The notes under the pieces: generated by a model
Told to the model about the DNA's origin: nothing
Databases searched by the model: none
The model's input: the letters and a program-made list of their open reading frames with translations, nothing else
Translations under genes and position numbers: made by a program
Shown: positions 1,137 to 62,324 of the stretch, piece by piece
Layout: each line of letters begins with the position of its first letter
How positions within the stretch are numbered: the stretch's first letter is position 1
Virus record (IMG/VR): IMGVR_UViG_3300026254_000003
Strand: one strand, 5' to 3'
Source: an uncultured virus (IMG/VR IMGVR_UViG_3300026254_000003)
Taxonomy: Duplodnaviria > Heunggongvirae > Uroviricota > Caudoviricetes
DNA length: 64,000 nucleotides

Positions 1137-1362
1137 GATATATTCTCTCGTTGTTGTGTTGACAGGATCAGTATCGCAAAAACTGTGTGGATTGTCAAGT
1201 TTTTTGTGTGAGAAAAGCCAAAAAGCCTACCAAGATGGTAGGCTTACAGGGGTGTTGTCATCCAAGTGATGTTCATCTGAGGCGAACGTCATAGCATACT
1301 CTCCTTATCGATCGTATAAGTGTTGGTTGCGGTGACGCACAGCACGTACGCCACCCTATAGG

Positions 1363-1773
1363 TTACAGGCTATCTATCGCCTCGTCAAAGGCCGCAATGA
1401 GGCGTTCGGCTTCCATCTTCTTGCGAGTAAGAATAGCGCGCATCCCCTGCTTCATATCAGCAATCGCTTGCGTTTTAAGCGCAGGCGTCGTGTACACGTA
1501 AAGGTTTGGCGTATAATGAAAGGGCAAAGGATCTTCAAAGCGTGTAAGACCAGGAACGTAAAGCGATGATTTCTGGACGCGAGAACCGTTTATGCAAACT
1601 TCATCTTTGCCCCATGTGAGACCAGGCGTAGGCGTCGGTTGATAGCTGAACGCGGGCTGCTCAGTTAATCCACTCATCTTTAAAGACAATTTAATCACGG
1701 TGGTGCTGTCGTCAAAGTAGCCAAATTCTTTTAACGCGGCATCAAAGTCAGGGGTGATGGTTTGTTCTGGCAT
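1363..1773 (-). CDS. hypothetical protein
   Basis: 136-aa ORF, GGAG RBS, behind repeat copy 1786. Confidence 0.8.
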   Translation of the reverse strand: MPEQTITPDFDAALKEFGYFDDSTTVIKLSLKMSGLTEQPAFSYQPTPTPGLTWGKDEVCINGSRVQKSSLYVPGLTRFEDPLPFHYTPNLYVYTTPALKTQAIADMKQGMRAILTRKKMEAERLIAAFDEAIDSL

Positions 1774-1899
1774 GGATAAACTCCGTTGTTGTGTTGACGA
1801 GAGTTATTATCCCAAAGACTGAGAGTGTTGTCAATAAAGTTTTACCTATTATGACAACACTCGCCGTTGAAAGGATTGGTAGCTAGATTCCGCCCTATC

Positions 1900-2574
1900 T
1901 TATATTTCTAATTTTGCAACGTAATCGCGAAGTTGCTTTACGTCGTCTTCGTACTGCGAGTTATAAGGCATGTTTTTTGGCCCCAATATCATACCTTCTT
2001 TGAGATCGATTTTATCAAAAGAGGCATTGACGAGAACCTTATCGCTGCTTTTTTCCATCAAGAAAAAGAGCCGCATTCGACCGCTGTACATTTTTGCAAA
2101 GTTAGGCTCTCTTAGTGCGTTGTACATCTGGTGACCTATCATAATGAGACTGCTCTCATCTGTGACGGTACACCATACACGTCCACTTGATGTCTCCAGC
2201 ACCGTCGCTTTGCCTTGCAGTGGTGGATTTTTCGCAATGCCAGTGATAGAGGATTGTACGCGGAAGCCGCCATCGACACGAACAACGGTCAAATCGGTAT
2301 ATTCGTGAATAGTAGAAAGCAGCTTCTCCACATCATCGCTGAGCGCATCATCGATGATACCTAAAACATCTTCACTGCTAAGTAACGCGTTGTCATTATC
2401 TTCATTGCTGGTCTCAATAGACCACACCGAGTCCTCAAGGTAATGGACAGACGCTTCACTTAGCACGCTGTTTACGATGGTAGCGATAGACTCACCGCTG
2501 TCACCTGCAATACGCGCAAGGAAAAAGCCAAGCAAGGTGTTTTCTGTGAATAGGGCGTTGTCTTTGATGGTCAT
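1900..2574 (-). CDS. hypothetical protein
   Basis: 224-aa ORF, co-oriented with the upstream gene. Confidence 0.75.
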   Translation of the reverse strand: MTIKDNALFTENTLLGFFLARIAGDSGESIATIVNSVLSEASVHYLEDSVWSIETSNEDNDNALLSSEDVLGIIDDALSDDVEKLLSTIHEYTDLTVVRVDGGFRVQSSITGIAKNPPLQGKATVLETSSGRVWCTVTDESSLIMIGHQMYNALREPNFAKMYSGRMRLFFLMEKSSDKVLVNASFDKIDLKEGMILGPKNMPYNSQYEDDVKQLRDYVAKLEI

Positions 2575-2585
2575 GGTTGACGGCC

Positions 2586-3002
2586 TTATCGTTGATGGTA
2601 ATTAAGGTAGAGTGATTGACGTCTCATTTCACTTTCTCGCCAAGCGTTGTATCGCAGCGACGCATCCGCATGGCGACGTTTTCTGTCAATGCTGTAAGTA
2701 AGGCCACTCATTGCGGCGGTCATGCCGTGACAAAGTATAAAAGAGACTAGCACGGGGTGCTGTTCAAAGGACGGAATAGCTTGAAGCACAATAAGTGGGT
2801 ACAGCCCCATTGTACAAAATAACAGAGCAAACGCGGTGTTGGCCCAGTATACGAGGGCGCACGCGCCAAGCGTAGCTAGCGGTCGGCTACGCCATGCTTT
2901 ACGTTCCACCAGCTTAACTAGTGCGCTGGCAGCGGCGTTAAATTGTCGTTCAATACGCGTTCTAGGCGCTTGTAGGTGACTGAAGTCAGACATATAACTC
3001 AC
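2586..3002 (-). CDS. hypothetical membrane protein
   Basis: 138 aa, hydrophobic segments, leader half-repeat at 3021. Confidence 0.7.
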   Translation of the reverse strand: MSYMSDFSHLQAPRTRIERQFNAAASALVKLVERKAWRSRPLATLGACALVYWANTAFALLFCTMGLYPLIVLQAIPSFEQHPVLVSFILCHGMTAAMSGLTYSIDRKRRHADASLRYNAWRESEMRRQSLYLNYHQR

Positions 3003-3082
3003 AGTGGCGTTTCCTTATAATGTTGCGCTGACAGGCCCCCTCATCTCACTAATAAGGCGAGATGAGGAGGTGTGGCACTTAG

Positions 3083-3601
3083 TTAGATGACGTCAAGGAC
3101 GGCTTGTGCGCTTTCGATGAAGTTCTTGTATTCATCGGAAAGCAATTCAATGGCTTCGCGGTAGAAGTCATCATCGTAGCCAGAGCCATAAAAGTCATCA
3201 CCAACGAAACCGCCAATTGCGCTAATGCTCTCACCATTGACAATAAGCTCCACCGTAAAAAGGCCCACCTCTTCAACTCTTTTCTCAAGTGCATTGCGTT
3301 GGCGCGACAAGGTTGAAGGGTGCATGTCAGGATGATTGTCAGCTGAGAAAAGATCGTTGGCAAATTCGCTGGCTGAGCGGTCGTCTTCGATCTTTTCAAT
3401 GGCAGCAAGGTCGTGGTTCGCCAGCAAGGTGTATAGCGCTTGCGTGCGCGCCATAGCGTTGATTTTTGCGGTGCGTTCCGTTGGTGTATTGCCGTAGCCC
3501 TTTGGTATTTTCTTTGCGCGCTTGCGGATGGTCTCTTTAAACGCGTTAACATTGGCCGCAAGCGTATGGATGTCGTTTGCAGAAAGTGTGAGTATTTTCA
3601 T
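3083..3601 (-). CDS. hypothetical protein (acidic C-terminus)
   Basis: Start corrected to MKILTLS after repeat 3614. Confidence 0.8.
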   Translation of the reverse strand: MKILTLSANDIHTLAANVNAFKETIRKRAKKIPKGYGNTPTERTAKINAMARTQALYTLLANHDLAAIEKIEDDRSASEFANDLFSADNHPDMHPSTLSRQRNALEKRVEEVGLFTVELIVNGESISAIGGFVGDDFYGSGYDDDFYREAIELLSDEYKNFIESAQAVLDVI

Positions 3602-3681
3602 GATGCGGTTCCGTTGTTGTGTTGACAGAAATAGTGTCTCAAATGCTGTGTTAGTTGTCAACAAAAAAGAAATATGGTTGC

Positions 3682-4092
3682 TTAGGTTGCATCATTATTG
3701 CCGCTTTTCAGCGATTGTTGATGCTGATGATAGGCGAGGTTGTGTATTGCTGTGACGCGCTGAGCAATAAGCGTGTTGGCATACCATGCGAAACCCAGTA
3801 TGGGCGAGATGGCTAGCGCAATTAACAGTGACACCGCGATATCAATGAACGTATTGCCATAACGACGGCTCGCGACACGCTCTTTCATTGGGCTTGTTAG
3901 CGCATGAGGGGCTTTTTTTACGCCAGCGTAAATAAAGAAACTGCTGAGGAACATGACAGCAAGAGAAACCGAACATAGCCAGAAAATAACACTTTTTAAG
4001 GTGTCACTTGCCGTTAATAGATAAAATAAAATTAAACTGATGACAGTAAAATCAAGAAGGTGATGGATAAGAAAATATTCGCGTTTTTTCAT
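3682..4092 (-). CDS. hypothetical membrane protein
   Basis: MKKREYF start, 3-4 hydrophobic helices. Confidence 0.65.
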   Translation of the reverse strand: MKKREYFLIHHLLDFTVISLILFYLLTASDTLKSVIFWLCSVSLAVMFLSSFFIYAGVKKAPHALTSPMKERVASRRYGNTFIDIAVSLLIALAISPILGFAWYANTLIAQRVTAIHNLAYHQHQQSLKSGNNDAT

Positions 4093-4170
4093 CGTGAATG
4101 CCCGTGTTATGTTAGCAAGTGGTGGTGTAAATAGCTTGTGTTTTGACGCGCCGTGTAGCGCCAAGGCGCG

Positions 4171-4686
4171 CTAAAAGCGCACGCTGACCCCTAGTTGCTT
4201 AAAGTAATCGTTGGGGTGCAAGCCGCTTGCGCCAACGAAAACCTTGTTTGATGCGTCGCAATACGCGCGATATTCATCAGGTGTTGCAGCCTCCGCCTCC
4301 CCAAGCAGGTCTCGTGATAGCTTTATATCAAGGAATTCCTTGGGTGATGACGCAGACTCGCGTATTAAGTCGGTTTCTTTCTCGATGTAATCGTTACGTG
4401 CATCATGCAGTGTTTTCGATGCGGCATCGAGTGCTGGTACCTGAGAAAACAAATTGTCCTTATTCCATGCCAGCTTGTCCCGAAAAGCCGTGATGAGTGT
4501 TGGATCTTGGACTTCAGCAATAAACGAAATTGAATACTGATAGATGCTTACAAAGAAAAAGACGCCTGTTTTGCGTTCCTCAATCATAGGCTGATTGCCC
4601 TCGCGGTGATCGACGGCCATGTTAGACATAATAGTAATGAATTCTTTTACGTCTGATGCTGAACCTGTAGTGTACTGTGTTTTCAT
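4171..4686 (-). CDS. hypothetical protein
   Basis: 171-aa ORF behind repeat 4701. Confidence 0.8.
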   Translation of the reverse strand: MKTQYTTGSASDVKEFITIMSNMAVDHREGNQPMIEERKTGVFFFVSIYQYSISFIAEVQDPTLITAFRDKLAWNKDNLFSQVPALDAASKTLHDARNDYIEKETDLIRESASSPKEFLDIKLSRDLLGEAEAATPDEYRAYCDASNKVFVGASGLHPNDYFKQLGVSVRF

Positions 4687-4793
4687 GCGGGTTACCTGCT
4701 TGTTGTGCTGACTAAGAACAGTGTAACAAGCCTGTGTGCTAAGTCAATGTTTTTTTGCAGGCTGAGGAACGCCTCAACCCGCAGTGTACGCGA

Positions 4794-5573
4794 TTACGCC
4801 AATGCCTTGTAAGGAACGTAACCATCAAACAAAGCGAGGTGGCTTTGATGTGTGGTAAAGTCAGGATGCGGTATGGCACCAATAGCCTCAATAATGCGAG
4901 AAAGTTCCAGCGTCTGCATCGCCCTGAGAGCGGATGTGGATGCATAACTCACATTACATCGCTTAGGCTCTTGTTTAGCGCGCGCACATAACTCGGCGGT
5001 TTTGACGATGTCGGGCTGCGTGGCTTCCTGCAAGCGTTGCTGCGCATCTTCGTTAAGGTAATCAATACGGAAAATTAGACGGGAGTTGCCGCCATTTGTA
5101 CTAATAAGCTTCATGCTACAGGTTGCGCCGCAAGGTGCTAGCACGCATTCAACAAACTCACCTATTTGATCATCAAACGCTTTAATGGATTGGGTCACTC
5201 TGACGCACAACTCATCATCATCCATATGGGCCGTTGTAAATATCCCCACAGAGTTCGACGTCTCATCGCAAGTGAAAACAGGGTAGTAAAAGTCGAAATA
5301 TCCTTCGCCATAGAGGTGGTCGTGGGTGCGCGAGCAGATACTAATAAGCGAAGATGTGGTGCGTGTTACTGCTGACTCGGTGTTGGTGAGGGATGAGAAC
5401 ACGTGGGCGTTTTTAACGCCTGCTATCACTGCACCAAATGCCTTGGATTTAGACTCGTTAAGTGGTGTTCCAAAGAAGGCATTATGCGATGCGGAAAGCA
5501 AAGAAGCAAAGGCGCGAGGGCCATCGCTGTGTTGGCTGATAAGCGTGCGAAGTTTTTGTTGTAGCGTTGACAT
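4794..5573 (-). CDS. hypothetical protein, long-leader class
   Basis: Start MSTLQQK with GAGG RBS; own TTGACT-17-TATAAT promoter at 5766-5793. Confidence 0.75.
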   Translation of the reverse strand: MSTLQQKLRTLISQHSDGPRAFASLLSASHNAFFGTPLNESKSKAFGAVIAGVKNAHVFSSLTNTESAVTRTTSSLISICSRTHDHLYGEGYFDFYYPVFTCDETSNSVGIFTTAHMDDDELCVRVTQSIKAFDDQIGEFVECVLAPCGATCSMKLISTNGGNSRLIFRIDYLNEDAQQRLQEATQPDIVKTAELCARAKQEPKRCNVSYASTSALRAMQTLELSRIIEAIGAIPHPDFTTHQSHLALFDGYVPYKALA

Positions 5574-5806
5574 AATTATCCTCAATTGACCGATACATAA
5601 GAGTTCACCCGTTGTCCTGTGCGGCCATTGTGAATAATGCTGCAAAGAAACATACTGTAGATTGTGTGTTAACGTGATGCCGTGCCAGTCGCCTGGAGGG
5701 TGAAGCAATCCGCGCCGTTATACGCTTGGTAACATCTAGGCCGAATCACCTAAATATTGAAGTTAATTATACCAACTAAAGCGATAAAGTCAACCAAAAA
5801 AGAGTC

Positions 5807-5860
5807 AAAAAAGCCCGCGCATGGCGGGCTTGGGTGAGTGTGTCAGCACATCACCAAGGT
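5807..5860 (-). terminator. Hairpin (TGTGCTGACA) + intrinsic terminator module, copy 1
   Basis: Minus strand ggtga tgtgctgacacac tcacc, then agcccgc-catgc-gcgggc-TTTTTT. Confidence 0.8.
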
Positions 5861-5874
5861 GAAACTAAAGCGTG

Positions 5875-6438: not shown

Positions 6439-6513
6439 AATGCATTCTCGTTGTTGTGTTGACGAAAATAATCCTCTCACAGATATGAGAGGGTTGTCAA
6501 TAGTGTGCCGTAA

Positions 6514-7451: not shown

Positions 7452-7558
7452 GGTGGTAACCCGTGTTGTGCTGACAGGAACAGTATCTCAAAATCTGTGT
7501 TTTTTGTCAATGGGTTTTGCGTAAAAAAGCCCGTAAAATGCGGGCTTTAATGTTGGTG

Positions 7559-8071: not shown

Positions 8072-8152
8072 GGTACTGTTCCTGTGTTGTTGTGCTGACA
8101 GGAACAGTATCCCAAAAGCTGAGAGCGTTGTCAATGTTTTTTTGCATTATGT

Positions 8153-9058: not shown

Positions 9059-9167
9059 TGTGATATACCTTTAATGTTGTGCTGACAAGATAAGTATCTC
9101 AAACTCTGAGAGTGTTGTCAATAGAAAATGCGGCTGACCCATAATTAACCAGCCGCGCACCTCATAT

Positions 9168-9509: not shown

Positions 9510-9709
9510 GGTGATGCTCCTAAGTTGTGCTGACAGGGTTAGTATCTCAAAAGCTGAGAGTGTTGTCAATACAAAAAGTGATTGGTGTTTGTTTTATATG
9601 CAAAAAAAGGCGAGTTGGCAATCGTCTTCTTTGCAACGTATCACCACATATCTATATTCGCTTTTGCGATTTTGTAATGCGTGAAGAAACGGCTCTTATG
9701 AGCCTTTTC

Positions 9710-9865: not shown

Positions 9866-9952
9866 GAGGCTTTCTCCTTGGTTGTGTTGACAGTGTTAGT
9901 ATCCCAAAGTCTGAGTGCGTTGTCAACACAGCCAAGAAAATTCATGCAGATA

Positions 9953-10729: not shown

Positions 10730-10822
10730 GGAGTATACCTTGTTGTGTTGACCTGTTTATTGTCTCTTATAATCAGGGTTAAGTCAATGTTAAAATTGAA
10801 AATAACCAATGTTAAGAAAGAG

Positions 10823-11501: not shown

Positions 11502-11618
11502 GATGGTTACCCTGATGTGTTGTGCTGACAGGATCAGTATCGCAAAATCTGTGATAGTTGTCAATGGTTTTGGCAACAGTCGCTCACAATAATCATGTTT
11601 ACGACTGCCGCTTGGCGA

Positions 11619-12320: not shown

Positions 12321-12422
12321 AATGCGTTGCCTGTGTTGTTGTGCTGACAGGGTAAGTATCGCAAAATCTGTGTTATTTGTCAATAGGTTGTTTAGGTTGT
12401 CTGTAAGAAAAACGTACGATGA

Positions 12423-13100: not shown

Positions 13101-13205
13101 GATGTAACCCTTGTTGTTGTGCTGACAAGAACAGTATCTCAAAAACTGAGTGCGTTGTCAATTTTTTTGGCGGCGCGCCCTCGCGGAAAGGGCGCGTGTT
13201 GTGCA

Positions 13206-13760: not shown

Positions 13761-13880
13761 CGTGGTGTTCCTGTTGTTGTGCTGACAGGGGTTAGCATCT
13801 CAAAACCTGAGAGTGTTGTCAACAGGAAAGTAGAGAAAGCGCCTTTTTATGTGGCTAACTACTGCGCTATGTTATTTTCA

Positions 13881-15387: not shown

Positions 15388-15470
15388 CGTTTTTTACCTG
15401 TGTTGTGCTGACAGGATCAGTATCTCAAAATCTGTGTTGATTGTCAACAAAAAAGATGAAGAACGTGCCG

Positions 15471-15809: not shown

Positions 15810-15920
15810 GCGAGTAACCTCTGTTGTGCTGACAGGGTTAGTATCTCAAAATCTGTGTTAATTGTCAATAAAAAAACAACCAAGGTTGCAAACAACCTTG
15901 GTTTTATGGGTAATAAAAAT

Positions 15921-17150: not shown

Positions 17151-17226
17151 AGTGCTCTCCGAGACCGTTGTGTTGACAGGGTTAGTATCTCAAAAGCTGA
17201 GAGTGTTGTCAATAAAAAAGAGACAT

Positions 17227-17979: not shown

Positions 17980-18090
17980 GATGTTTTCCTGTGTTGTTGT
18001 GCTGACAGGATTAGTATCCCAAAACCTGTGTATGTTGTCAACAGTTTTTTGTGTTTTTTTGCAGCCGATAAGAGGTGTGGCAACTGCGGC

Positions 18091-18588: not shown

Positions 18589-18644
18589 AGAGAATAACCT
18601 GTGTTGTGTTGACATTGTCATTGTAACACAGGTTGCCTACCATG

Positions 18645-19898
18645 TTAAGCGCTCGCTTTATGCTTGCGATGGAACTGCAAGACGTTGGATTTTTTCTTAG
18701 CATACTCTACATCACGCCTTAGCGCATCAATATCACGTTCCGTGCTGGCAATGATGCTCAGTGACATTCGAGTCACCGCAGCATTTAAAAGCAATGGCAA
18801 GAACGTGATCAATGCAAGCTGGAACGCAACCTCGGCCGTTGCCGACGAAAATAGCGTCGAAGGGGCTAGAGCAAGTGCCATCATGACAACAGGAATAAGG
18901 GGAGAGGTGACCGAAAATGCCCGTGAACGTATCAAGTCACTTGCTCGTGGTCCCGTATGGTCATAAGCATCTTGTTCATTGGTCGTAGTGAAGTCAAGCG
19001 TTGGGTTGACAGACAAGCTAAGTCCAATGTGACGCCCGACGTAAAGTCCGAACAACCCCATCATTAGTGAGAGTGGGTATGAAGCTGCTTGCGAGTCAGT
19101 TAGCGTGACTAATCCATGATGAGCAATGTACATAAAAATGACCGTGGCCACTGTGATAAGACAAGTCATTAAACCGTTTTGAAGGTAAATAGCGTCCCGG
19201 GCCTGACTGTGGCTTTTAATCACACCTTTACCGGCCTCAATAACAGCTGATTGCTCTTCTTTTGAGGTGAGAAGGCTGCCAAATTTGTTATGGCTGCTGG
19301 AAAGATAAAATCCAAAACGCTTAAGCACTGCGGTCTGCTTGCCGCTATCTGATGTTTCAAATTCACTGAGTGCGACATCCATCGCGCTCTTTTTATTTCT
19401 CGCCTCATGCGCAGGTTTAGCGCTATTGAATAAGAAAAGCGTCGCGCTATAGACCGTCACAATAAGGCATGTGCCTAGCAGCATGGAGGATGCGAACGTG
19501 CCCGTAGTGAGGGTGGAGTACGCTTCGTAAAAAATTACGCTCAATCCAAAAGGCAGCCCATAAGGGATAATTTTACTGGTTTGTTCGGGCAGGCGCAGGG
19601 CAAGTTTAAGGATGCCATTGTGATCACCTCGACGGATAGCGTCACGTCGCTCAAAGAACGCGTGCACAGCGATGTAGAAAAGAGGCGCTATGGCACCTAT
19701 GAAAGCGAGAAACATTAATGTTGTCGCTTTTATATCTGAGAGCGCAACCAATAGAAGCAGCGCGCCTAGCAGTGTGATGAGGCTGTTTCTTATGCCAACA
19801 TATAATGCGCGGGAAAGTGCGTGCATGGTCTGGTCGCAGTGTTTGTGTCGTTCAAGCAAAAGCAGCGCCTTTCCTTCATTTATCGATTTAATTCTCAT
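18645..19898 (-). CDS. multi-pass membrane protein (about 8 TM)
   Basis: Long ORF with two blocks of hydrophobic helices; start MRIKS with AAGGA RBS. Confidence 0.8.
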   Translation of the reverse strand: MRIKSINEGKALLLLERHKHCDQTMHALSRALYVGIRNSLITLLGALLLLVALSDIKATTLMFLAFIGAIAPLFYIAVHAFFERRDAIRRGDHNGILKLALRLPEQTSKIIPYGLPFGLSVIFYEAYSTLTTGTFASSMLLGTCLIVTVYSATLFLFNSAKPAHEARNKKSAMDVALSEFETSDSGKQTAVLKRFGFYLSSSHNKFGSLLTSKEEQSAVIEAGKGVIKSHSQARDAIYLQNGLMTCLITVATVIFMYIAHHGLVTLTDSQAASYPLSLMMGLFGLYVGRHIGLSLSVNPTLDFTTTNEQDAYDHTGPRASDLIRSRAFSVTSPLIPVVMMALALAPSTLFSSATAEVAFQLALITFLPLLLNAAVTRMSLSIIASTERDIDALRRDVEYAKKKSNVLQFHRKHKASA

Positions 19899-21154: not shown

Positions 21155-21263
21155 TGGTGTATCCTCGTGTTATGTTGACAGGATTAGTATCTCAAAGCCT
21201 GTGAGTTATGTCAACACTTTTTCTTGTTTTGTTCACAAGGCAACAAAGCACATCAATGCGGTA

Positions 21264-22787: not shown

Positions 22788-22890
22788 AAATGTTAACCTT
22801 ATTTGTTATCGCTGGGGCGATGTGTGTTGACAAGGTTAGTATCTCAAAAACTGCGAGTGTTGTCAAGATTTTGATGTAATGAGAGATAAG

Positions 22891-23405: not shown

Positions 23406-23477
23406 GGTAAATCTCTCTGTTGTGTTGACAGGGTTAGTATCTCAAAATCAGTGTGCGTTGTCAAGCCGTCAGGTGAA

Positions 23478-23918: not shown

Positions 23919-24004
23919 AATAAAGTTCCTGTTGTGTTGACAGGAACAGTATCTCAAATGCTGTGTGAGTTGTCAATGTTTTTATTGCCGTGCCACAACA
24001 CAAG

Positions 24005-25543: not shown

Positions 25544-25639
25544 AATGGCGTCCTGAGTTGTTGTGTTGACAGATGTAGTATCTCAAACTCTGAGTGCGTT
25601 GTCAAGCATAAAAAGAAAACCTTATTAAAAATAAACCCA

Positions 25640-29396: not shown

Positions 29397-29486
29397 GGTT
29401 TTCTCTCTGGTTGTGTTGACGATTAAATTGTCTCAAATTTGAGCAAAAAAGTCAACATAAAACGATGTGTTAATAGGTGATTCGCC

Positions 29487-30002: not shown

Positions 30003-30073
30003 GGGGCTAACCTTTGTTGTGTTGACAGGGTTAGTATCGCAAATTCGATGAGCGTTGTCAATAGACGATGAGC

Positions 30074-30994: not shown

Positions 30995-31080
30995 AGCGTT
31001 ATCTCCTGTTGTGTTGACAAGGTTAGTATCTCAAAACCTGTGTGGATTGTCAACAGGTTTACGTCTATTGCTGCGTTACA

Positions 31081-31694: not shown

Positions 31695-31752
31695 GTGAAA
31701 CCTCATTGTTGTGCTGACAAAACCAGTATCTCAAACTCTGAGAGTGTTGTCA

Positions 31753-31878
31753 ATGAAATATTCAATGAACGGCATTGCGCTTAACGCGCAAGGTAATCTG
31801 ATTGATGCATCCGCACCATTAGCCATTAGCGCTTTTGGGTTGTTAGGCTTGCTTGCAGCGCGTAGACGAAAAAAGTAG
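31753..31878 (+). pseudogene. C-terminal relic of a PEP-CTERM-like sorted protein
   Basis: Translates ...MNGIALNAQGNLIDASAPLAISAFGLLGLLAARRRKK*, same tail type as 50123..50884; begins exactly at the edge of repeat 31707-31753; terminator 31894-31924. Confidence 0.7.
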
Positions 31879-32609: not shown

Positions 32610-32682
32610 AATGGATTAACTCCGAGTTGTGTTGACGGTTAAATTATCTCAAGAGTAGTGTGAAAAGTCAACAGGGAACGTG

Positions 32683-33791: not shown

Positions 33792-34066
33792 TGCATTGAC
33801 TCTGTTGTGTTGACTGCATGTAGTGTCTCACAATCAGTGTGGGTTGTCAATGGGTGCGGCTCAATATTACGCGCAGCTACGCTGTTTCACTGTCGATGCT
33901 ATCAACCACGTTCTCACCGTCTTCCCCTGCCTTTTCAGGCGATGATTCATCAGGATTTATGTGGCGCTCGATATGTTCATCTATCGCGCTTTCAAAGCCA
34001 GATGTAGCCATTGTTTTCTCCATATCAATACCTGAACTCACGTTGTGATATTAACGCAAAAAGTAG

Positions 34067-34623: not shown

Positions 34624-34685
34624 GGCTTCCTCAGCGTTGTGTTGACAGGATAAGTGTAAATAAGTGAGGGTTGTCAAGGCCGATG

Positions 34686-35925: not shown

Positions 35926-35981
35926 GTGTTTTCCTCATTGCTGTGTTGACATGACCAGCATCTCAAAAACTGTGTGTATTG

Positions 35982-36494
35982 TCAATCTTTTTTGTGTGAT
36001 TGCGATGCACCCAATGCAACACTAATGACAGCGATAACGGTGCTGTAATACTCAGGATAGCGTTCAGCAATCTCTTTGCAGGCAATCTGGTAAGCCTCAT
36101 ACCCGTGAGGGTGGGTGTAAAAGTCATCACCGACGCAGGCGTCATAGACTTTGAAGAGCACCTCTTCGACGTAAAGATTGAAGTAATAAGCGCCCTCTTG
36201 AGCGACGCGTTTTTTAAGCTGATTGGCTTGGTGCTTAAGCCCGTTACGTTCACTTTCAGCCTTGTAAAAGCAAGCCGCGAGATTCTTGGGCAGTTTCCCA
36301 CTATCGAGGGCGTCAATTTTATCTAACCGCACCAACTTATCGCGCACAAACTGTCTGAACGCAGTCAGTGACTCGACGCGTTTATACAGTTCCTTTTGAT
36401 CGGTGTCATCTTGGGTTAAGACGTGTAATTTTCTTACGTCAGCGCCGATGTTTTGAATATCAAACGCAGACAAGGTGAGTGTTATTTTTTGCAT
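35982..36494 (-). CDS. hypothetical protein
   Basis: 170 aa; TGA stop lies inside the -35 box of the next repeat. Confidence 0.75.
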   Translation of the reverse strand: MQKITLTLSAFDIQNIGADVRKLHVLTQDDTDQKELYKRVESLTAFRQFVRDKLVRLDKIDALDSGKLPKNLAACFYKAESERNGLKHQANQLKKRVAQEGAYYFNLYVEEVLFKVYDACVGDDFYTHPHGYEAYQIACKEIAERYPEYYSTVIAVISVALGASQSHKKD

Positions 36495-36757: not shown

Positions 36758-36857
36758 AAAAATTCCTGCGTTGTGTTGACAAAACAAGTATCTCAAAATC
36801 TGAGAGTGTTGTCAAGTTGGTTTTTAGCGCGAACCCAAACGTCCGCGCTCTTAGCCA

Positions 36858-37376: not shown

Positions 37377-37548
37377 AATGTATTCCTGTGTTGTGTTGAC
37401 AAAAAGAAGTGTCTCACAGCCTGTGAGTGAAGTCAATTGTTTTGGTTTTGCGGCATCATAGCGAGGGCAACGCTCGCACTTTTATGTTGATTTAACGGCT
37501 TTATTTAGATATAATTGGCATAAATCGTCAACACACAGGGTTTACATA

Positions 37549-40901: not shown

Positions 40902-41008
40902 GATGTAAACTCCTGTTTCGTTGACAGGATGAGTATCTCAAAAACTGAGAGTGTTGTCAAGATTAAGTGCGTATTGCGCCTTACTCTCGTAAAGCGCATA
41001 CCGTTACA

Positions 41009-41512: not shown

Positions 41513-41626
41513 GAGCGCGCTCTCTGTGTTGTTGTGTTGACAAGGTTAGTATCTCAGATGCTGAGAGCGTTGTCAATGGGTTTGACCTCGCACACGCAAG
41601 GCCAATGTCAGAAATAGCGATTGACG

Positions 41627-41971
41627 TTAGCTGCCAAGGTAGGTGCGCAGTGCGCGTTTGACGTCATTGGCATAGCTAGACGCTTCGCTTTCAGCCGCAT
41701 TTTTTTCTTGCTCTGCCTCCTCCGCTTCCTCGCTCTCCATGTCAGCGTTGTAGTAGGTGTCTTCAGCGAGTTTAAGTTCGCCTACGGCATGCGCCCAATT
41801 TTCATATGCCGAAAGAAGCTCATCGGCGTCCGCGTCCTCAGAGACATTGCGCTCTCCCATAGACTCACCCACGAGTGTTTTCACGAGTGTGGTGTCAGGC
41901 TGATGGTTCGCTAGCGAGTCTAACACGGTGGACTCAAGCTCTGAAGTCGATGGTGATTGTTCGTTGCTCAT
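41627..41971 (-). CDS. small acidic helical protein
   Basis: Start MSNEQSP after repeat 41990. Confidence 0.8.
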   Translation of the reverse strand: MSNEQSPSTSELESTVLDSLANHQPDTTLVKTLVGESMGERNVSEDADADELLSAYENWAHAVGELKLAEDTYYNADMESEEAEEAEQEKNAAESEASSYANDVKRALRTYLGS

Positions 41972-42137
41972 AGTGAGGCTTCTCTCTGTTGTTGTGTTGA
42001 CAGGATAAGTGTCGCAAAAACTGAGAGCGTTGTCAATAATTTTGTGCACAGTGGTTGATTATTAAACGACGAAACCGCCAGAGGGGGAAGCAAAAAAAGG
42101 CGCAGTGCGCCTTTCAAATGGATGTTGTCACAACGTG

Positions 42138-42971: not shown

Positions 42972-43068
42972 TCTCCGTTGTTGTGTTGACCAGGTGAGCA
43001 TCTCAAATTATGCGTGCGTTGTCAATGTTTTTCTCATTAAATTGAAAATAATCAAATTTAACAGGCGC

Positions 43069-44194: not shown

Positions 44195-44312
44195 GGTGTT
44201 GCTCCGTTGTTGTGTTGACAGGGCTAGTGTCTCAAATGCTGTGTGTATTGTCAATGTTTTTTTATAAGCGTGGGGAGATTATTGTAGATAAATATCTCCC
44301 CGCTAACGATAA

Positions 44313-44663: not shown

Positions 44664-45023
44664 AAAGTGTTACTCCGTTGTTGTGTTGACAGGATTAGTA
44701 TCGCAAAACCTGTGTTTATTGTCAACGTTTTTTTCATGTTTTCCTAAAAAAACAGCGAAAGTCAAAACTTAATTTATTATGCCGCGTACTTAGCGGCAAT
44801 CGTTTGCAGCCACGTTACGTCATAGCGCTCTGCTGGCACCCACTCTTGGTCGTTTTCAGACCACCATTCACCTTGGGCATTGACCCAAAACAAGTCTCTG
44901 CATTTGCTGTCATCTTGCTTCGGCCCCTTTAGGACCCAAATCAAAGTTAACCATTATATATTTCCTTGTTGTTTACGTATTGCGTGACAGTGAACGTGCC
45001 ACGCAAGCGCCGTGTGCGTTTAT

Positions 45024-48761: not shown

Positions 48762-48887
48762 GGTGTTTTATCCTGCTGCTGTGTTGACAAGGTTAGTATC
48801 TCAAAAACTGAGAGCGTTGTCAAATAAAAAGGCTATCACAAATAAAATAATCTGCTATTATTAACATCATGTTCACAAGGAGGTTGG

Positions 48888-49470: not shown

Positions 49471-49554
49471 GGAATTACCTTCTTTGTTGTGTTGACCCGT
49501 GTATCATCTCACAATGTGAGTGCGTTGTCAATGATAACGCACTTAATGGCGCTT

Positions 49555-49863: not shown

Positions 49864-50054
49864 AGCGAAGTTCTCTTGTTGTGTTGACAATGTTAGTATC
49901 TCACAGTCTGTGTGGGGTGTCAATGGTTTGTTTTATGGTGCTGCAAGTGTCAGGTTGTTTTACACTGGTGGGTGTATATCCATAAGGAGTGTAAATGTGT
50001 GAATATACAAGGCGCTGAACGACTGCGGGTGCGCTTTTAAATGCGTGAAAAAGG

Positions 50055-50884: not shown

Positions 50885-51022
50885 CATCTCAATTTCATAC
50901 CTCGCCCCGTTTTTTCTGGGGCGAGTTTTACCCTCATAGCTCACACCAAAAACCTCAAAAAAGTTGACTTATGATGTTAATTTTAGTAAAATTGACTACG
51001 TCAACACAACGAGGTAACAGCC

Positions 51023-52428: not shown

Positions 52429-52578
52429 GTGTTCTCTCCGTTGTGTTGACTGTATAAGTGTCTCAAAGCGTGTGAATTTTGTCAAGTGCGGCGAGGTGAA
52501 GGTGGTTTTTATTATTGTAAATAATCAAGAATAGTAACGCGACCTATGCCGCGTTACTTTAGCGATGCGTTTTTTATC

Positions 52579-53990: not shown

Positions 53991-54073
53991 AGAGGTATTC
54001 CTTTTGCTGTGTTGACAGGAATAGTATCTCATGGTGTGAGGGCGTTGTCAATGAAAACAACGCCCTCGCACGA

Positions 54074-54844: not shown

Positions 54845-54927
54845 ACGTGTTTTTCCTTTGCTGTGTTGACAGAAAAGAGTATCTCACAAGGTGAGTGTGT
54901 TGTCAATGGCGATGGCGTATTAAAACG

Positions 54928-56858: not shown

Positions 56859-56989
56859 CGTTTTTCCTCGGTTGTGTTGACAGGTTTAGTATCGCAAAAA
56901 CGGTGAGTGTTGTCAAGCTTTTGTATGCAATAAAACAAAGCCATCAATCAAGATGGCTTTGTTTGTTCGATGCACGAGTGCGGTGAGGA

Positions 56990-57857: not shown

Positions 57858-57946
57858 GACGGCCTCCTGTTGTGTTGACAAGACAAGTATCTCAAATGGT
57901 GTGAGCGTTGTCAAGTAAATTAGGCAAAAGGCCGCCTCTTGCAACG

Positions 57947-58998: not shown

Positions 58999-59283
58999 TT
59001 ATTGTGGGGCTCGAAAACGAACCTGATCACTTTCGTGTACGAAAACAATAGTTTCCGCATTCTCCCATTCCCAGTAGCCCTTTTGCTTCTTTGCCCATTG
59101 TTCAAGTGCAGGGGCAATCCACTGATAGCCTCTGACTTCGCAATCGTAGCTGATGGCGTCGATGTCTGAACAAAAAAGTTGCCCCTCGTCGCCTACACGA
59201 AAATTTACATGACGGTCGACCATATTGAAAGTGCCATTTTCAAGTACGGATATGTAGACCGTTGGGATGTTGCGTAAGACCAT
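58999..59283 (-). CDS. hypothetical protein
   Basis: MVLRNIP start after repeat 59295. Confidence 0.75.
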   Translation of the reverse strand: MVLRNIPTVYISVLENGTFNMVDRHVNFRVGDEGQLFCSDIDAISYDCEVRGYQWIAPALEQWAKKQKGYWEWENAETIVFVHESDQVRFRAPQ

Positions 59284-59368
59284 AATATTTCCTCTGTTGT
59301 GCTGACAGAGCGAGTATTGCAAAAGCTGTGTTTTTTGTCAATAATCGCGTGAAGAACATCCAGAAAAA

Positions 59369-60508: not shown

Positions 60509-60602
60509 GGCATTCTCCTGTTGTGTTGACCATGTCAGCGTCTCAAAGTCAGAGAGCGTTGTCAATATTTCCGACAAGTGTGTCGCGTGAATTAAGGAAA
60601 GA

Positions 60603-60800
60603 TTACTCTTCCGAAATGACGAAGCTTTGAGTAGCTTGTGATATTGCGCTTTCAGTTGGCTCCAGCATTGTTAAAATGGCTTGCTTTTGCTCTTGTGTGA
60701 ATGAGGCATCTGACATGAGCGCCATCTTGCTTTTTTGCAGCGTAAGGTTAATGTTGGTTACAGCCTCGCAAGCGTTGTCGATAAGTTGACTAAGGTGCAT
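60603..60800 (-). CDS. small hypothetical protein
   Basis: MHLSQL start after variant repeat 60811. Confidence 0.7.
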   Translation of the reverse strand: MHLSQLIDNACEAVTNINLTLQKSKMALMSDASFTQEQKQAILTMLEPTESAISQATQSFVISEE

Positions 60801-60863
60801 GTTTCTCTCCTGTTGTGTTGACAGTTTAAATATATCAATAAATTTGACAAAGTGCAACAAAAT

Positions 60864-61334
60864 TTATTCAGACAAGTATGTCGACAATGACTCATCAAGT
60901 TCATCGAACAGTGCATCGAATGCGGCTTCGGTTATACGCCCTTCACGTAACGCCTTTCGTGCAGCAAGTAATTGGGACGCATGACTCAGCATGTCGCTAA
61001 CACCATGAAGCGGGATGCAGCGTTGCGTTGGCGCTGGGTTGGTTGGCGTTATGCCGTTATAGATGTTAATGGTTAACGGAACGCTGACATTGTTATGCGG
61101 GCCGTTAAATGTCTCGCAGTCTGAAGAAAGCATATTGATGCCTTCTCCGCAGGGGATAAAGTAGAGGTTAACGCCGTCATCTCTAATGTCGTTTAACAGT
61201 TCTTCTGCGTTGCAGTCAGGGTAGATCTTACCGTGGCGCTGAACGGCACTGTCCAGTCCAGTCTTGGCGCTCTCAGGCGTGGTGCCTACGGCAATAAACT
61301 CAAAGTGTCGCGTTTCGTAAGTCGTGATATACAT
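60864..61334 (-). CDS. hypothetical protein
   Basis: 156 aa, GGAG RBS. Confidence 0.75.
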   Translation of the reverse strand: MYITTYETRHFEFIAVGTTPESAKTGLDSAVQRHGKIYPDCNAEELLNDIRDDGVNLYFIPCGEGINMLSSDCETFNGPHNNVSVPLTINIYNGITPTNPAPTQRCIPLHGVSDMLSHASQLLAARKALREGRITEAAFDALFDELDESLSTYLSE

Positions 61335-61436
61335 AACAAAGGCTCCGTAGGAGTCATGGCAATCACAGTGTGTGCTGTGTCGCCATGGTCTAATTAAAAA
61401 GGCTGACGGTGGCTTGGTTCGTCTTGTCGCTGCTCG

Positions 61437-61928
61437 TTAGGAAGAGGTTTCTTCTGGCTCAACGAGAATAACACCTTTTCCGCTAACAGGGCTGATCACG
61501 CCTTCATCGTCTCCGAGCCTTGATATGTATGCGCTGTCCACGCCAAACATGGCGTCAGTACCACGGTCTTTGTAGATAACGATGTCGACGGGAAGTTGCG
61601 TGTCAGGATCGGTGACCGTGACTTCTTTGACATACATGGCGGTATCAGACGATGTGGGCGGTATGTTCTTCTCTGTGAGGTAGTCGATGGTTTTAACCCA
61701 ATCCACTTCTGCTGATGTCGTACTCATAATGACGTCGTAGATGCCGTAGTCCACATGACTATGGGCTTCCTTTAACCGGGCGATCAGCGTCGATGCTAAA
61801 CGCTCAAAGACCTCGTCATCCCCCACTTGATCTGAGGTTAAGACAGGCACTCGGTTAACCAATACAGCTAATGATTTAACGTTGGCAAAAAATGCGCGAA
61901 TGAGCGTAACGGTGACATGCTTATACAT
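61437..61928 (-). CDS. hypothetical protein
   Basis: 163 aa, AAGGGA RBS. Confidence 0.75.
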   Translation of the reverse strand: MYKHVTVTLIRAFFANVKSLAVLVNRVPVLTSDQVGDDEVFERLASTLIARLKEAHSHVDYGIYDVIMSTTSAEVDWVKTIDYLTEKNIPPTSSDTAMYVKEVTVTDPDTQLPVDIVIYKDRGTDAMFGVDSAYISRLGDDEGVISPVSGKGVILVEPEETSS

Positions 61929-61995
61929 GGCGTTCCCTTTATCAATGAGACTGTGAAGGCGCCGAAGCGCCTAGCTGTAGCGTAAAACGAAGTGG

Positions 61996-62238
61996 CTATT
62001 TAAAGATAGCCAGCACGTCTGCACTGAGGAACTCTGATTTAACCAGAATGCTGGTGATTTCTTCGCTGAGGGGGTCAACGTTCAGCAAGTAGAAGCCTTC
62101 TTCTTTTTGTCTGATGAACGTATAGGTGTCCAAGCAAGCGAGCGTATCAGAGACCGTTACCGTACCGTGCAAGTCTTCCGTTTTCGCCTTTTTCATGCGA
62201 CGGTCTTCGTTGAGTTCAAGTAAACGAGATACTTTCAT
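61996..62238 (-). CDS. small hypothetical protein
   Basis: 80 aa behind variant repeat 62253. Confidence 0.75.
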   Translation of the reverse strand: MKVSRLLELNEDRRMKKAKTEDLHGTVTVSDTLACLDTYTFIRQKEEGFYLLNVDPLSEEITSILVKSEFLSADVLAIFK

Positions 62239-62324
62239 GTGTGCATTCCTGTTGTTGTGTTGACGGTTATTATATTAACAACAAACACAGCCTGTGTCAA
62301 CAAACACAGGCCACAAATTGATGG

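Follow-up and report, generated by a model that had tools for sequence, protein, structure and literature searches.

Promoter-leader repeats head gene cassettes and act as crossover points in a probable accessory region of an uncultured marine element

Introduction

Within a 64-kb stretch of DNA (the window, meaning the whole stretch analysed), a short sequence recurs dozens of times in front of genes that bear no relation to one another. The locus raises the question of whether this repeat is a promoter, a regulatory site, a recombination site or a mobile element, and on what kind of replicon such an array would be carried.

Results

The repeat and its geometry

A 46-bp unit, TTGACAA-N4-CNCAG-N2-TTTG-N-GATACT-N6-GTCA(A/G)CACAAC, occurs 54 times in the window, where fewer than one copy is expected by chance (Table 1). 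Its core, TTGACA-N17-GATACT, has 32 matches, none of them on the plus strand, where shuffled sequence would yield 0.05, and a weight matrix derived from these matches detects, above 12 bits, 44 minus-strand copies and no plus-strand copy in the window, the top score over 20 shuffles being 2.8 bits. The terminal box alone, GTCARCAYARC, yields 57 matches on both strands (53 minus, 4 plus; 0.38 expected), and promoter-like sequence precedes 52 of the 53 minus-strand boxes, the exception lying within an ORF at 8325-8335. Two matrix matches with variant boxes, at 22821-22866 and 40915-40960, raise the total from 52 to 54, in agreement with the approximately 54 copies proposed by the sequence-only reading. 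The TTGACA, 17-nt spacer, TGn, GATACT and 28-nt interval between TTGACA and TGTCA described there are likewise borne out, as are the irregular spacing (292 to 4141 bp, median 906) and the single orientation, all array copies lying on the minus strand; an additional plus-strand box, at 51000-51010, sits behind a different promoter, TTGACT-N17-TAAAAT. The proposed dyad fared less well, as its N28 layout is present but the symmetry is lost in 13 of the 43 canonical copies, those reading TGTCAG, in which the -35 hexamer carries no compensating change.

Table 1. Positions of the repeated elements and associated features in the window.
Feature	Position	Strand	Evidence
element -35 to +11, canonical	1153..1198	-	pattern, matrix 70.3 bits, box
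element, GATAAT -10, 7-nt discriminator	1788..1834	-	matrix 22.2 bits, box
element, GACACT -10	3616..3661	-	matrix, box
element, promoter variant TTGACT/TACACT + box	4702..4747	-	box
element, promoter variant + box	6453..6500	-	box
element, canonical	7465..7510	-	pattern, matrix, box
element, canonical	8089..8134	-	pattern, matrix, box
element, canonical; terminator-like hairpin directly upstream 9130-9156	9076..9121	-	pattern, matrix, hairpin
element, canonical	9524..9569	-	pattern, matrix, box
element, canonical	9881..9926	-	pattern, matrix, box
element, promoter variant TTGACT/GACAAT + box	10742..10787	-	box
element, canonical; before DUF3268 gene 10878-11501	11519..11564	-	pattern, matrix, domain match
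element, canonical	12338..12383	-	pattern, matrix, box
element, canonical	13116..13161	-	pattern, matrix, box
element, GATGCT -10, 7-nt discriminator	13776..13822	-	matrix 23.8 bits, box
element, canonical; before 5'-deoxynucleotidase gene 14773-15387	15402..15447	-	pattern, matrix, domain match
element, canonical; hairpin + T-run upstream	15823..15868	-	pattern, matrix, hairpin
element, canonical	17167..17212	-	pattern, matrix, box
element, canonical	17996..18041	-	pattern, matrix, box
element, promoter variant TTAACA/TACAAT + box	18603..18648	-	box
element, box variant GTCAACATAAC	21169..21214	-	pattern, matrix, box
element, variant box GTCAACACACA, outside box pattern	22821..22866	-	pattern, matrix 61.5 bits
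element, canonical	23419..23464	-	pattern, matrix, box
element, canonical	23931..23976	-	pattern, matrix, box
element, canonical	25560..25605	-	pattern, matrix, box
element, promoter variant TTGACT/GACAAT + box	29410..29455	-	box
element, canonical	30016..30061	-	pattern, matrix, box
element, canonical	31008..31053	-	pattern, matrix, box
element, canonical	31708..31753	-	pattern, matrix, comparison with 486-kb relative
element, TTGACT/GATAAT	32626..32671	-	matrix 25 bits, box
element, GACACT -10, 7-nt discriminator	33804..33850	-	box
box after divergent promoter (TTGACA.. TACACT)	34636..34681	-	box
element, GATGCT -10	35940..35985	-	matrix, box
element, canonical	36770..36815	-	pattern, matrix, box
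element, TTGACT/GACACT, 7-nt discriminator	37390..37436	-	box
element, variant box GTCAACGAAAC, outside box pattern	40915..40960	-	pattern, matrix 67.6 bits
element, canonical; downstream partner in recombination example	41531..41576	-	pattern, matrix, junction
cassette between recombination partners, gene 41627-41971 (114 aa)	41577..41990	-	comparison with locus L186
element, GACACT -10; upstream partner in recombination example	41991..42036	-	matrix, junction
element, GATGCT -10	42980..43025	-	matrix, box
element, GACACT -10	44209..44254	-	matrix, box
element, canonical	44680..44725	-	pattern, matrix, box
element, canonical	48778..48823	-	pattern, matrix, box
element, variant -10 region	49486..49531	-	matrix 43 bits, box
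element, canonical	49878..49923	-	pattern, matrix, box
promoter TTGACT-N17-TAAAAT + same box, SD, ATG of gene 51023-51370	50964..51010	+	
element, GACACT -10	52440..52485	-	matrix, box
element, canonical	54006..54051	-	pattern, matrix, box
element, 7-nt discriminator	54860..54906	-	pattern, matrix 18.6 bits, box
element, canonical; strong hairpin upstream	56871..56916	-	pattern, matrix, hairpin
element, canonical	57869..57914	-	pattern, matrix, box
promoter+ORF unit: element 59296-59341, gene 58999-59283	58999..59343	-	comparison with 486-kb relative
element, canonical, top score 79.1 bits	60202..60247	-	pattern, matrix, box
element, GACGCT -10	60520..60565	-	matrix, box
box after promoter variant TTGCAC/TATATT	60812..60857	-	box
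box after promoter variant TTGACA/TAATAT, 7-nt discriminator	62254..62300	-	box

Across the 43 canonical copies, TTGACA is found in 38 and T at -15 in 41, while G at -14, A at -11 and T at -7 are each present in 42; T precedes the start at -1 in 35, followed by G at +1. A TTGACA hexamer, 17-nt spacer, TG at -15/-14, A at -11, T at -7 and pyrimidine-purine start make up the textbook sigma-70 extended -10 promoter. G at -12 (40/43) and C at -8 (37/43) are off the sigma-70 consensus, yet selectively kept. The element had been said to lie shortly before a start codon, and an ATG indeed follows at +19 to +31 from the predicted +1 in 52 of 52 elements. The box is retained after divergent promoters and one plus-strand promoter, constantly 6-7 nt past the -10 hexamer; with this fixed distance, a promoter before 52 of 53 boxes and the downstream ATG, it is tied to the predicted transcript start. 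Leader regions headed by an element fold less than those of 46 promoter-less genes (-2.6 vs -3.95 kcal/mol, p = 0.005).

Selection between orthologous elements

Between the window and a 486-kb contig (44 elements), divergence is 0.2% in the box, 1.5% in the -35 and 3.3% in the -10 region, against 9.9% in the discriminator and 4.7% in coding sequence. In 82 element pairs from orthologues of 70-90% identity, the corresponding values are 2% for the -35, 0% for TG, 1% for the -10 and 1% for the box, against 12-24% for the flanks, 13% for the spacer and 14% for the discriminator; the per-position profile shows that -24 to -20 and -17 to -14 are conserved too. Because purifying selection thus falls exactly on the -35, TG, -10 and box, the repeats behave as sigma-70-type promoters ("-35/TGn/-10") with a shared leader, as the sequence-only reading had supposed, in which the predicted transcript start is as constrained as the promoter itself.

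Genes behind the elements

The 54 elements serve approximately 105 minus-strand ORFs, and therefore roughly half of the genes are without a promoter of their own. The description of the cassettes as self-contained thus holds for about half of the genes; the remainder lack their own promoter, and a strong hairpin lies just upstream of only 17 of 52 elements. That the genes are unrelated and mostly ORFans is upheld, as paralogy among the 140 called ORFs is confined to 3 small families (7 ORFs), while 6 of the 112 window proteins have a Pfam match above cut-off and 13 of the 112 have any PHROG match. Accessory genes of phage type on the replicon include EaC (homologues in 66 phage records), NinX, a 5'-deoxynucleotidase and several PHROG families. 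The window also encodes a 723-aa PcfJ-domain protein, whose matches in annotated records are only on Vibrio plasmids, and a TnpB element whose DNA is 81% identical to copies on Pseudoalteromonas plasmids.

Replicon and relatives

The window belongs to a marine metagenome contig of 229,889 bp, with loci of which it shares 100% identity, and it is collinear with a relative of 486,177 bp, in which a motif scan of the kind the earlier reading had proposed finds 90 boxes in one orientation and 5 in the opposite one within the 110,186 bp read, that is, at least 90 copies. An SSB gene adjoins the array in relatives, and an SSB encoded by the 486,177-bp relative shares 86.5% identity with the SSB of Alteromonas phage P24 over residues 21-131. 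SSB and PcfJ-like proteins occur on conjugative plasmids too, a point against a phage reading. The DNA read, up to 3 kb from promoter matches, revealed no gene for a capsid, portal, terminase, tail or polymerase, and the lineage was found neither in the viral contig collection searched nor in 50,697 phage records; the element pattern has no match among 185,579 species genomes, and the 20 kb compared with 72,556 plasmid records matched nothing beyond an insertion element. The most likely identity of this uncultured marine element of at least 486 kb is that of a giant phage infecting an Alteromonas-like gammaproteobacterium.

Cassette gain and loss

Among 34 listed structural differences, 11 take the form of element-cassette-element versus one element and represent 5 distinct events, whereas 13 have no boundary at any element. 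One of the five polymorphisms falls in the window, with its crossover within the repeat, and hybrid elements are read directly in the sequence. The cassette 41577..41990 is missing from contig locus L186, where a single hybrid element stands, and the crossover for the 41531..41576 / 41991..42036 pair lies within TTGACAACGCTCTCAG. A whole cassette (5861-6511, with element 6453..6500) is missing in a variant found in 4 runs; the 486-kb relative carries 743 extra bp ending exactly at the -35 edge of element 31708..31753; and the unit 58999..59343 is missing at the matching place in that relative, with a 75.6% paralogue at another site there. One cassette replacement between two elements was also found. 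The repeats are therefore crossover points for gene gain and loss, as anticipated, although the prediction that breakpoints would concentrate at repeats stands only in part: they are enriched against a uniform null (32/87 vs 7.9% expected), but not significantly against an intergenic-only null (20/44 vs 37%, p = 0.16).

Discussion

Taken as a whole, the data favor a model, which we consider probable, in which the window is part of a hyperplastic accessory-gene region of a giant marine phage, carrying an array of host sigma-70 promoters whose cassettes recombine homologously. Each repeat would be a very strong promoter read by host sigma-70 RNA polymerase, with a moderately A+T-rich upstream region, a -35 TTGACAA, a 17-nt spacer in which a CNCAG block is conserved, TTTGnGATACT as extended -10 and then a discriminator of 6-7 nt. 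The first base transcribed would be the initial G of the invariant box, GTCA(A/G)CACAAC; all transcripts would share their first 11 nt and continue into an unstructured, A/C-rich leader of 22-30 nt that carries a Shine-Dalgarno sequence and an ATG. Upon entry of the DNA into the cell, the 54 promoters may fire jointly, so that the approximately 105 small, mostly uncharacterised genes would be expressed, each promoter serving one or a few of them. RNA libraries entered the analysis as assembled contigs, which may include DNA and carry no information on start sites or levels. Because the copies are direct repeats with identical stretches, homologous recombination between neighboring copies would delete, insert or swap promoter-gene units, and related genomes would therefore differ by whole cassettes. 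As to what reads the box, we lean towards a trans-acting factor encoded by the element, which may control the whole regulon via a DNA operator or the RNA 5' end.

Alternatively, the replicon could be a giant plasmid or integrative conjugative element, with the array as an establishment (leading-region) regulon and the box as operator for an element-encoded repressor. This scenario, which we regard as unlikely, would account for the PcfJ-domain protein with its Vibrio plasmid matches, for the neighboring SSB gene and for a box constrained like the hexamers and placed at +1 to +11, where operators classically sit; orphan inverted boxes occur away from promoters, which would also suit a DNA-binding site. 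However, relaxase, type IV secretion, replication and partition domains are absent from the 112 + 76 + 24 proteins scanned, the plasmid records match only the insertion element in the 20 kb searched, and the genes for which relatives can be recognised are accessory genes of phages. In addition, the array runs to at least 90 copies over more than 100 kb, and we know of no leading region of that size with so many promoter copies. A parallel exists in the CUP/ArdK system of IncN plasmids; CUP sequences are conserved sites that ArdK binds and that overlap promoters (PMC6289460).

It is also conceivable, if distinctly improbable, that a sigma factor or polymerase brought or encoded by the element prefers GATACT and contacts the CNCAG block and the box, as the retained G at -12 and C at -8 and the selection on -24 to -20 and +2 to +11, positions without a known sigma-70 role, might suggest. 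However, the layout is that of a sigma-70 extended -10 promoter, the same box stands on copies with TACAAT, TAATAT, TATATT or TAAAAT, and no sigma or polymerase domain is present in the 112 + 76 + 24 proteins scanned. Further, T4 early promoters, composed of UP/-35/TGn/-10 with extra consensus regions, use the host polymerase despite these regions (PMC2988021).

The high number of near-identical copies might point to a selfish miniature mobile element, spread by transposition and promoter-like in appearance only, but this is very improbable, as all 54 copies share one orientation and a fixed start-codon distance, the sole inverted repeat spans just 6 bp (TTGACA/TGTCAA), the junctions read showed no obvious target duplications on either side, and the positions under selection are exactly those that sigma-70 contacts. 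Least credible is an integron-like site-specific system with its recombinase outside the window, a likeness the sequence-only reading had drawn and to which whole promoter-gene differences between related genomes might appeal, as no integrase or recombinase domain occurs in the 112 window proteins, the cassettes carry their own promoters, the crossover intervals are identity stretches within a 46-bp direct repeat, which fits homologous recombination, and several indels end away from elements; the resemblance is no more than a loose analogy, and the array is very probably not an integron.

Returning to the preferred model of a phage-borne array of host-read promoters, its nearest known counterpart is found in T4-type phages, in their PeSL early-promoter cassettes, and the T4-type analogy drawn from the sequence is apt, matching those published cassettes (PMC2839356).

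Architecture of the repeated element

The array is built on a 46-bp element in which a predicted promoter precedes an 11-nt box, GTCA(A/G)CACAAC, whose first G is the predicted transcript start (+1). The pattern TTGACA-N17-GATACT has 32 matches in the window, all on the minus strand, where shuffled sequences give 0.05, and a weight matrix built from these 32 copies returns 44 copies above a cut-off of 12 bits, every one of them on the minus strand; shuffling the window 20 times gave no score better than 2.8 bits. Searched as GTCARCAYARC, the box has 53 minus-strand and 4 plus-strand matches against 0.38 expected on both strands, and a promoter-like sequence precedes 52 of the 53 minus-strand boxes, the sole exception (8325-8335) lying within an ORF. 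Together with two matrix matches that carry a variant box, these 52 bear out the 54 elements counted in the sequence-only reading. Distances between copies range from 292 to 4141 bp (median 906), and neighbouring elements are not more alike than distant ones (permutation p = 0.44).

In the position profile, drawn from the 43 copies with canonical spacing, positions -35 to -30 read TTGACA in 38 copies and TTGACT in 4, followed by A at -29, and 17 nt separate the two hexamers. Beyond a variable stretch (-28 to -25), the spacer holds a block with C at both -24 (41/43) and -22 (40), followed by A at -21 (37), by G at -20 (34), and then by T at -17 (41/43) and at -16 (37/43). An extended -10 (T at -15 in 41/43, G at -14 in 42/43) leads into GATACT at -12 to -7, which agrees with TATAAT at four of six positions and in which A at -11 and T at -7 are each present in 42 of the 43. 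Between this hexamer and the box stands a variable discriminator, 6 nt long or, in some copies, 7 nt, whose last base (-1) is T in 35/43, and the box is followed by an A-rich stretch, by a Shine-Dalgarno-like GGA or GAG in 41 of 52 elements and by an ATG at +19 to +31 in all 52; a crude gene caller places a gene start 22-30 nt past +1 for 48 of the 53 boxes. Upstream, positions -50 to -38 are 64% A+T, compared with 53% overall. Judged from these motifs, the layout is that of a predicted sigma-70 promoter with a consensus -35, an extended -10 and a pyrimidine-purine start.

The box also stands behind other hexamer pairs, namely TTAACA/TACAAT, TTGCAC/TATATT, TTGACA/TAATAT and TTGACT/GACAAT, and behind every divergent promoter it lies 6-7 nt past the -10 hexamer, so that it is tied to the predicted transcript start and not to one version of the promoter. 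No box was found ahead of the promoter-less genes of the window. The G variant of the box (GTCAGCACAAC) is clustered, being carried by nearly all copies at about 4.7-18 kb (elements 4702-18041) and by few elsewhere.

Of 52 elements, 17 have a hairpin of -12 kcal/mol or stronger in the 55 nt upstream, whereas among 300 random windows the share is 14% (Mann-Whitney p = 0.039), and several of these hairpins have T-runs; approximately a third of the units are thus predicted to be insulated promoter-terminator composites. A TCTCA/TGAGA dyad in the spacer is found in one element subtype only.

Coordinates of the array features and of the SSB gene of related contigs
Feature	Position	Strand	Remarks
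Element with variant box	22821-22866	minus	weight matrix
Element with variant box	40915-40960	minus	weight matrix
Promoter TTGACT-N17-TAAAAT with box	box 51000-51010	plus	
Predicted 5'-deoxynucleotidase, YfbR-type HD enzyme	14773-15387	minus	NCBIfam equivalog, scoring 122.5 (cut-off 122)
EaC homologue (P22-like and Vibrio phages)	56990-57610	minus	31-36% identity in the 12 records listed
Large gene with C-terminal PcfJ domain	37549-39720	plus	runs against the array
IS605-family TnpB, 408 aa	45130-46356	plus	between cassettes
SSB gene	2103-2762 of locus L155; 47-697 of locus L099		relative contigs, upstream of the dense array

Selection on the element

The strongest evidence that the element is functional lies in the comparison of orthologous copies, which was made once between the window and a collinear 486,177-bp marine metagenome contig (the 486-kb relative; 44 elements) and once among pairs of 70-90% identity (82 element pairs, which are not independent).

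Divergence between orthologous copies, by part of the element
Part	Window and 486-kb relative	Pairs of 70-90% identity
Flanks	upstream 5.6%, coding 4.7%	12-24%
-35 hexamer	1.5%	2%
Spacer	5.1%	13%
TG		0%
-10	3.3% (whole -10 region)	1% (hexamer)
Discriminator	9.9%	14%
Box	0.2% (1 of 492 positions)	1%

The low divergence of the -35, TG and -10 relative to the flanks shows that the sigma-70 contact positions are under purifying selection. A per-position profile of 206 pairs adds two more conserved blocks, at -24 to -20 and -17 to -14, and the divergence profile indicates that purifying selection likewise acts on the block in the spacer and on the initial 11 bases of the predicted transcript. Sigma-70 has no need of either.

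Possible roles of the box

Several explanations of the box were tested. Element leaders fold less than the starts of 46 promoter-less genes (-2.6 vs. -3.95 kcal/mol, p = 0.005) and are 70% A+C, and an open leader of this composition would fit efficient ribosome loading. Openness as such leaves the invariance of eleven bases unaccounted for. The dyad TTGACA-N28-TGTC(A/G), noted in the sequence-only reading, was also considered as an operator. The dyad is real, but 13 of 43 copies read TGTCAG (G at +5) with the -35 unchanged and so do not maintain it, and its extension to TGTTGACA holds in a minority of copies only, which weakens the operator as a candidate. A hairpin between discriminator and Shine-Dalgarno sequence, with the box as its loop, is somewhat more stable with a copy's own partners than with swapped ones (-4.9 vs. 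-4.3 kcal/mol, permutation p = 0.014), but own partners have a median rank of 19.5 of 52 and many copies are without a stem, and this pairing is weak and inconsistent. Pairing of the box with 16S rRNA, for which E. coli rrsH served as a stand-in, was rejected, as the best duplex (-7.6 kcal/mol) is weaker than those of 99% of shuffled boxes.

It is likely that the box is read by a sequence-specific reader, which could be a protein or an RNA and could act on the DNA or on the RNA 5' end. Pfam recognised no DNA-binding domain among the 112 window proteins, and a search of Rfam gave 0 families. A more specific and quite tentative version holds that GUCA(A/G)CACAAC might be a shared 5' tag, or a DNA operator at +1, by which a factor of the element switches, protects or translates more than 90 promoters and their messages as one class. 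If true, the box would be the bacterial-virus counterpart of the common leader that marks the messages of some eukaryotic viruses, and the tag would work on the largest promoter-cassette gene library so far in a phage-like genome.

Inverted boxes also occur as orphans with no promoter, at 43141-43151 and 10855-10865 (both plus strand), and the relative has a pair of paralogous sites; against about 0.2-0.4 expected, two or three sites of this kind were found. The orphan at 43141-43151, which is conserved in the 486-kb relative, lies on the sense transcript in the loop of a 9-bp G+C-rich hairpin (-20.8 kcal/mol, z = -1.9) and is there the exact complement of the shared leader. It may act as a further binding site, or it may pair with the leader as antisense.

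Genes of the array

The window holds 140 called ORFs at a coding density of 87%. Pfam matches above cut-off were obtained for 6 of 112 ORFs (DUF3268, YfbR-like 5'-deoxynucleotidase, GmrSD_C/HNH, PcfJ domain, IS605-type TnpB and NUDIX), any PHROG match for 13 of the 112, mainly to families of unknown function, and only three paralogue families, covering 7 ORFs, were found, all of which agrees with the earlier description of the genes as unrelated ORFans. Approximately 105 ORFs of at least 50 aa lie on the minus strand as against 54 elements, so that roughly half are without a promoter of their own; the picture of cassettes each headed by its own promoter therefore holds at the 54 elements but not for this other half. 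Along the whole window the plus strand has a positive GC skew and, for the most part, a negative AT skew, which makes the coding (minus) strand A+C-rich, like the leader.

Among 29 of the 112 proteins run against NCBIfam, the 5'-deoxynucleotidase was the sole match, and a 417-aa ORFan gave a best score of 0.79 in a protein atlas, which is uninformative. The 5'-deoxynucleotidase gene stands directly behind a canonical element. Such an activity is a pre-early function of T5, and the predicted enzyme would suit the breakdown of host nucleotides early in infection. EaC homologues occur in 66 phage records from Vibrio, Salmonella and other hosts. The PcfJ-like protein falls into one of only four clusters among 5.8 billion proteins, the three others, at about 40% identity, being all metagenomic. 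The TnpB site measures 1498 bp in the window and 298 bp in the 486-kb relative, which points to a recent insertion or replacement; a second TnpB lies inside the relative's part of the array. The relative's array adds 76 further ORFs, nearly all unknown, with three Pfam matches (2OG oxygenase, TnpB and NinX).

Gain and loss of cassettes

Of 87 ends of homology between related sequences, 32 fall in the interval from -60 to +30 around a start, compared with 7.9% if ends were uniform (p ~4e-14); homology starts peak at -40 to -31 (10 cases) and ends at +10 to +39 (9 cases). Against an intergenic-only null, however, the enrichment is not significant (20 of 44 vs. 37%, p = 0.16, with a crude coding mask). 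The typing of indels is more telling than breakpoint enrichment on whether the repeats are recombination points. Among 34 listed structural differences, 11, representing 5 distinct events, set two elements flanking a unit of 400-860 bp against a single element; one replaces the DNA between two elements, 9 meet an element at one boundary and 13 at neither. In one such case the cassette between elements 41991-42036 and 41531-41576 (gene 41627-41971) is missing in L186, a metagenome locus whose single element combines the upstream flank of 41991-42036 with the -19 to +11 segment and downstream gene of 41531-41576, and this hybrid make-up places the crossover within the shared TTGACAACGCTCTCAG. 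Two large relatives likewise show two elements against one, with a crossover between -27 and +18, and also two unrelated ORFs swapped between conserved elements. The suggestion that the repeats may act as recombination points is supported by the 5 distinct events and by the three junctions that were read directly, with the caveat that the enrichment over intergenic DNA alone is not significant.

Units may also move by other means. The promoter-ORF unit 58999-59343 moved without a second element, and a 651-bp deletion (5861-6511), seen in contigs of four RNA-library runs from three studies, removes exactly one promoter and ORF unit (gene 5875-6438) with no second element used. In two runs there are contigs in which 450 is followed by 5581, and in several runs unrelated sequence follows past ~455; the approximately seven genes of 451-5580 seem to be exchanged for another block in other strains.

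The RNA-library data, from four runs, are assembled contigs, which show no starts, strand or expression, and their uncovered parts were not counted as evidence. These contigs break at the repeats, as expected from a de Bruijn assembler, and in window 1-20000 contig ends fall inside elements at ~9542-9560, 13132-13147, 15829-15841, 17185-17203 and 17989-18013. The repeats thus break short-read assemblies, and published assemblies of this replicon may be mis-joined in the array. Joints between elements that lead back along the array have their ends in repeats and are hence ambiguous as signs of excised mini-circles.

The replicon and its relatives

A scan of metagenome contigs with a 19-base pattern returned 119 stretches, and one match, at locus L184, was set aside as chance within a coding region. 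Taken as its reverse complement, the window matches loci of a 229,889-bp contig at 100% identity, and the 486-kb relative is collinear with it at 92-99.7% identity. The relative's array continues for approximately 47 kb past the window end, and in the 110,186 bp of the relative that were read, one strand carries 90 boxes and the opposite strand 5. In a third contig (290,245 bp), 40.5 kb contain 43 boxes, and many short contigs of other assemblies are 73-100% identical. At least half of the words of a 9.9-kb stretch of the window are found in 18 public runs, all runs with any share coming from 13 studies, and six runs recorded as RNA contain the stretch.

The replicon is probably a phage. In favor of this are the EaC homologues, NinX, the 5'-deoxynucleotidase and several PHROG families, as well as the unidirectional small ORFans behind very strong predicted promoters; against it, virion and replication hallmark genes were not seen in the parts of the replicon read, and the viral collections that were searched do not contain the lineage. 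An Alteromonas-like host is suggested by the OB-fold of the relatives' SSB, which is 86.5% identical to that of the Alteromonas phage P24 SSB, and by the DNA of the TnpB element, which is 81% identical to Pseudoalteromonas plasmid copies. In one relative a trypsin-like protease gene and another ORF are inserted between SSB and the next element.

A near-identity DNA search of window 1-20000 and a tblastn search with two large ORFans found nothing in phage records, 20 kb of the window found nothing in plasmid records besides the insertion element, and neither the element pattern, absent from 185,579 species genomes, nor a PcfJ alignment returned anything from species genomes. Viral contigs gave 0 matches to the strict element pattern and no relatives in protein-based scans; the loose pattern gave 85 single matches, which were judged chance. 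In the literature, motif strings among the matches listed were unrelated primers or eukaryotic sequences, and no account of this element was found.

Implications

The array would extend the "mobile regulatory cassette" principle of T4-type phages (~170-250 kb) to an unrelated, widespread marine element of ~0.5 Mb, more than 100 kb of which would be a library of promoter-gene units, and it may serve as a population-level record of cassette gain and loss. A box as constrained as polymerase contact sites offers a handle on how an early transcriptome is controlled or marked in a possible giant phage, and equally on the way early transcription is turned off, a step that the available text of PMC2988021 describes as unexplained even for T4. 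The element consensus is, moreover, a compact and very strong candidate promoter and leader for marine gammaproteobacteria.

Comparison with known systems

The integron-like gene library envisaged in the sequence-only reading is not supported beyond a loose analogy. As in an integron, small unrelated genes in one orientation are arrayed and are gained or lost as units; however, the 54 elements supply the units with promoters of their own in place of a common promoter, exchange proceeds by homology within the promoter repeat, and Pfam found no integrase domain in any of the 112 window proteins. The array is not an integron. The CUP elements of the IncN plasmid leading region are bound by ArdK, and the CUP repeat overlaps promoters of genes expressed on cell entry, so that one regulator controls the set, according to the available text of PMC6289460 (citing Delver and Belogurov, 1997). 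The window repeat is likewise a conserved sequence overlapping many promoters, but CUP amounts to a handful of copies on a ~50-kb plasmid, and no ArdK-like regulator, relaxase or transfer genes were found here among the proteins scanned, in which, for the part of the replicon covered, plasmid-type signs were confined to the PcfJ domain and SSB.

T5 early promoters are of the strong UP/-35/TGn/-10 kind and drive many small genes. In the text available for T4 (Hinton, 2010, PMC2988021), early promoters are similarly "uber" UP/-35/TGn/-10 promoters with additional consensus regions, which win host polymerase away from host promoters and stand before many small genes that are not essential. The window array shares with T4 the -35/TGn/-10, the extra consensus regions and the small genes, whereas its consensus, with a -10 of GATACT, a CNCAG spacer block and a start-site box, is unlike that of T4 or T5.

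The closest known kind is the promoter-early stem-loop (PeSL) cassettes of T4-type phages. In the portions available of two accounts (Arbiol et al., 2010, PMC2839356; Comeau et al., 2014, PMC4122927), strong promoters of a sigma-70-like type, with stem-loops and with A+T-rich sequence upstream, are repeated ahead of ORFans in hyperplastic regions. The first of these (PMC2839356) reports about 50 copies in the genome of each of phi1 and RB49, and ORFs that lie between two repeats in one phage where its relative has a single repeat, recombination between repeats being the proposed cause of such ORF differences. The window elements are likewise repeated sigma-70-like promoters directly before ORFans in a variable region, with indels and replacements bounded by repeats and a single chimeric repeat in the shorter form (5 distinct events), and the analogy drawn earlier with T4-type phages is upheld by these PeSL repeats and by cassette indels of the same form. 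In contrast to PeSL, the lineage here is unrelated and uncultured, with no T4 core gene among 212 proteins scanned; the array is far larger, that of the relative spanning more than 100 kb and holding at least 90 copies; the stem-loop is found at only about a third of the copies; and the 11-nt box is invariant and conserved like the hexamers, where the available text of PMC2839356 describes no such box. The array thus differs from known systems in lineage, in scale, in its partial stem-loops and in its invariant start-site box. It is real and striking, and the sequence-only reading was largely right as to its kind; T4-type phages already exemplify the concept, and the box is the interesting part of the array.
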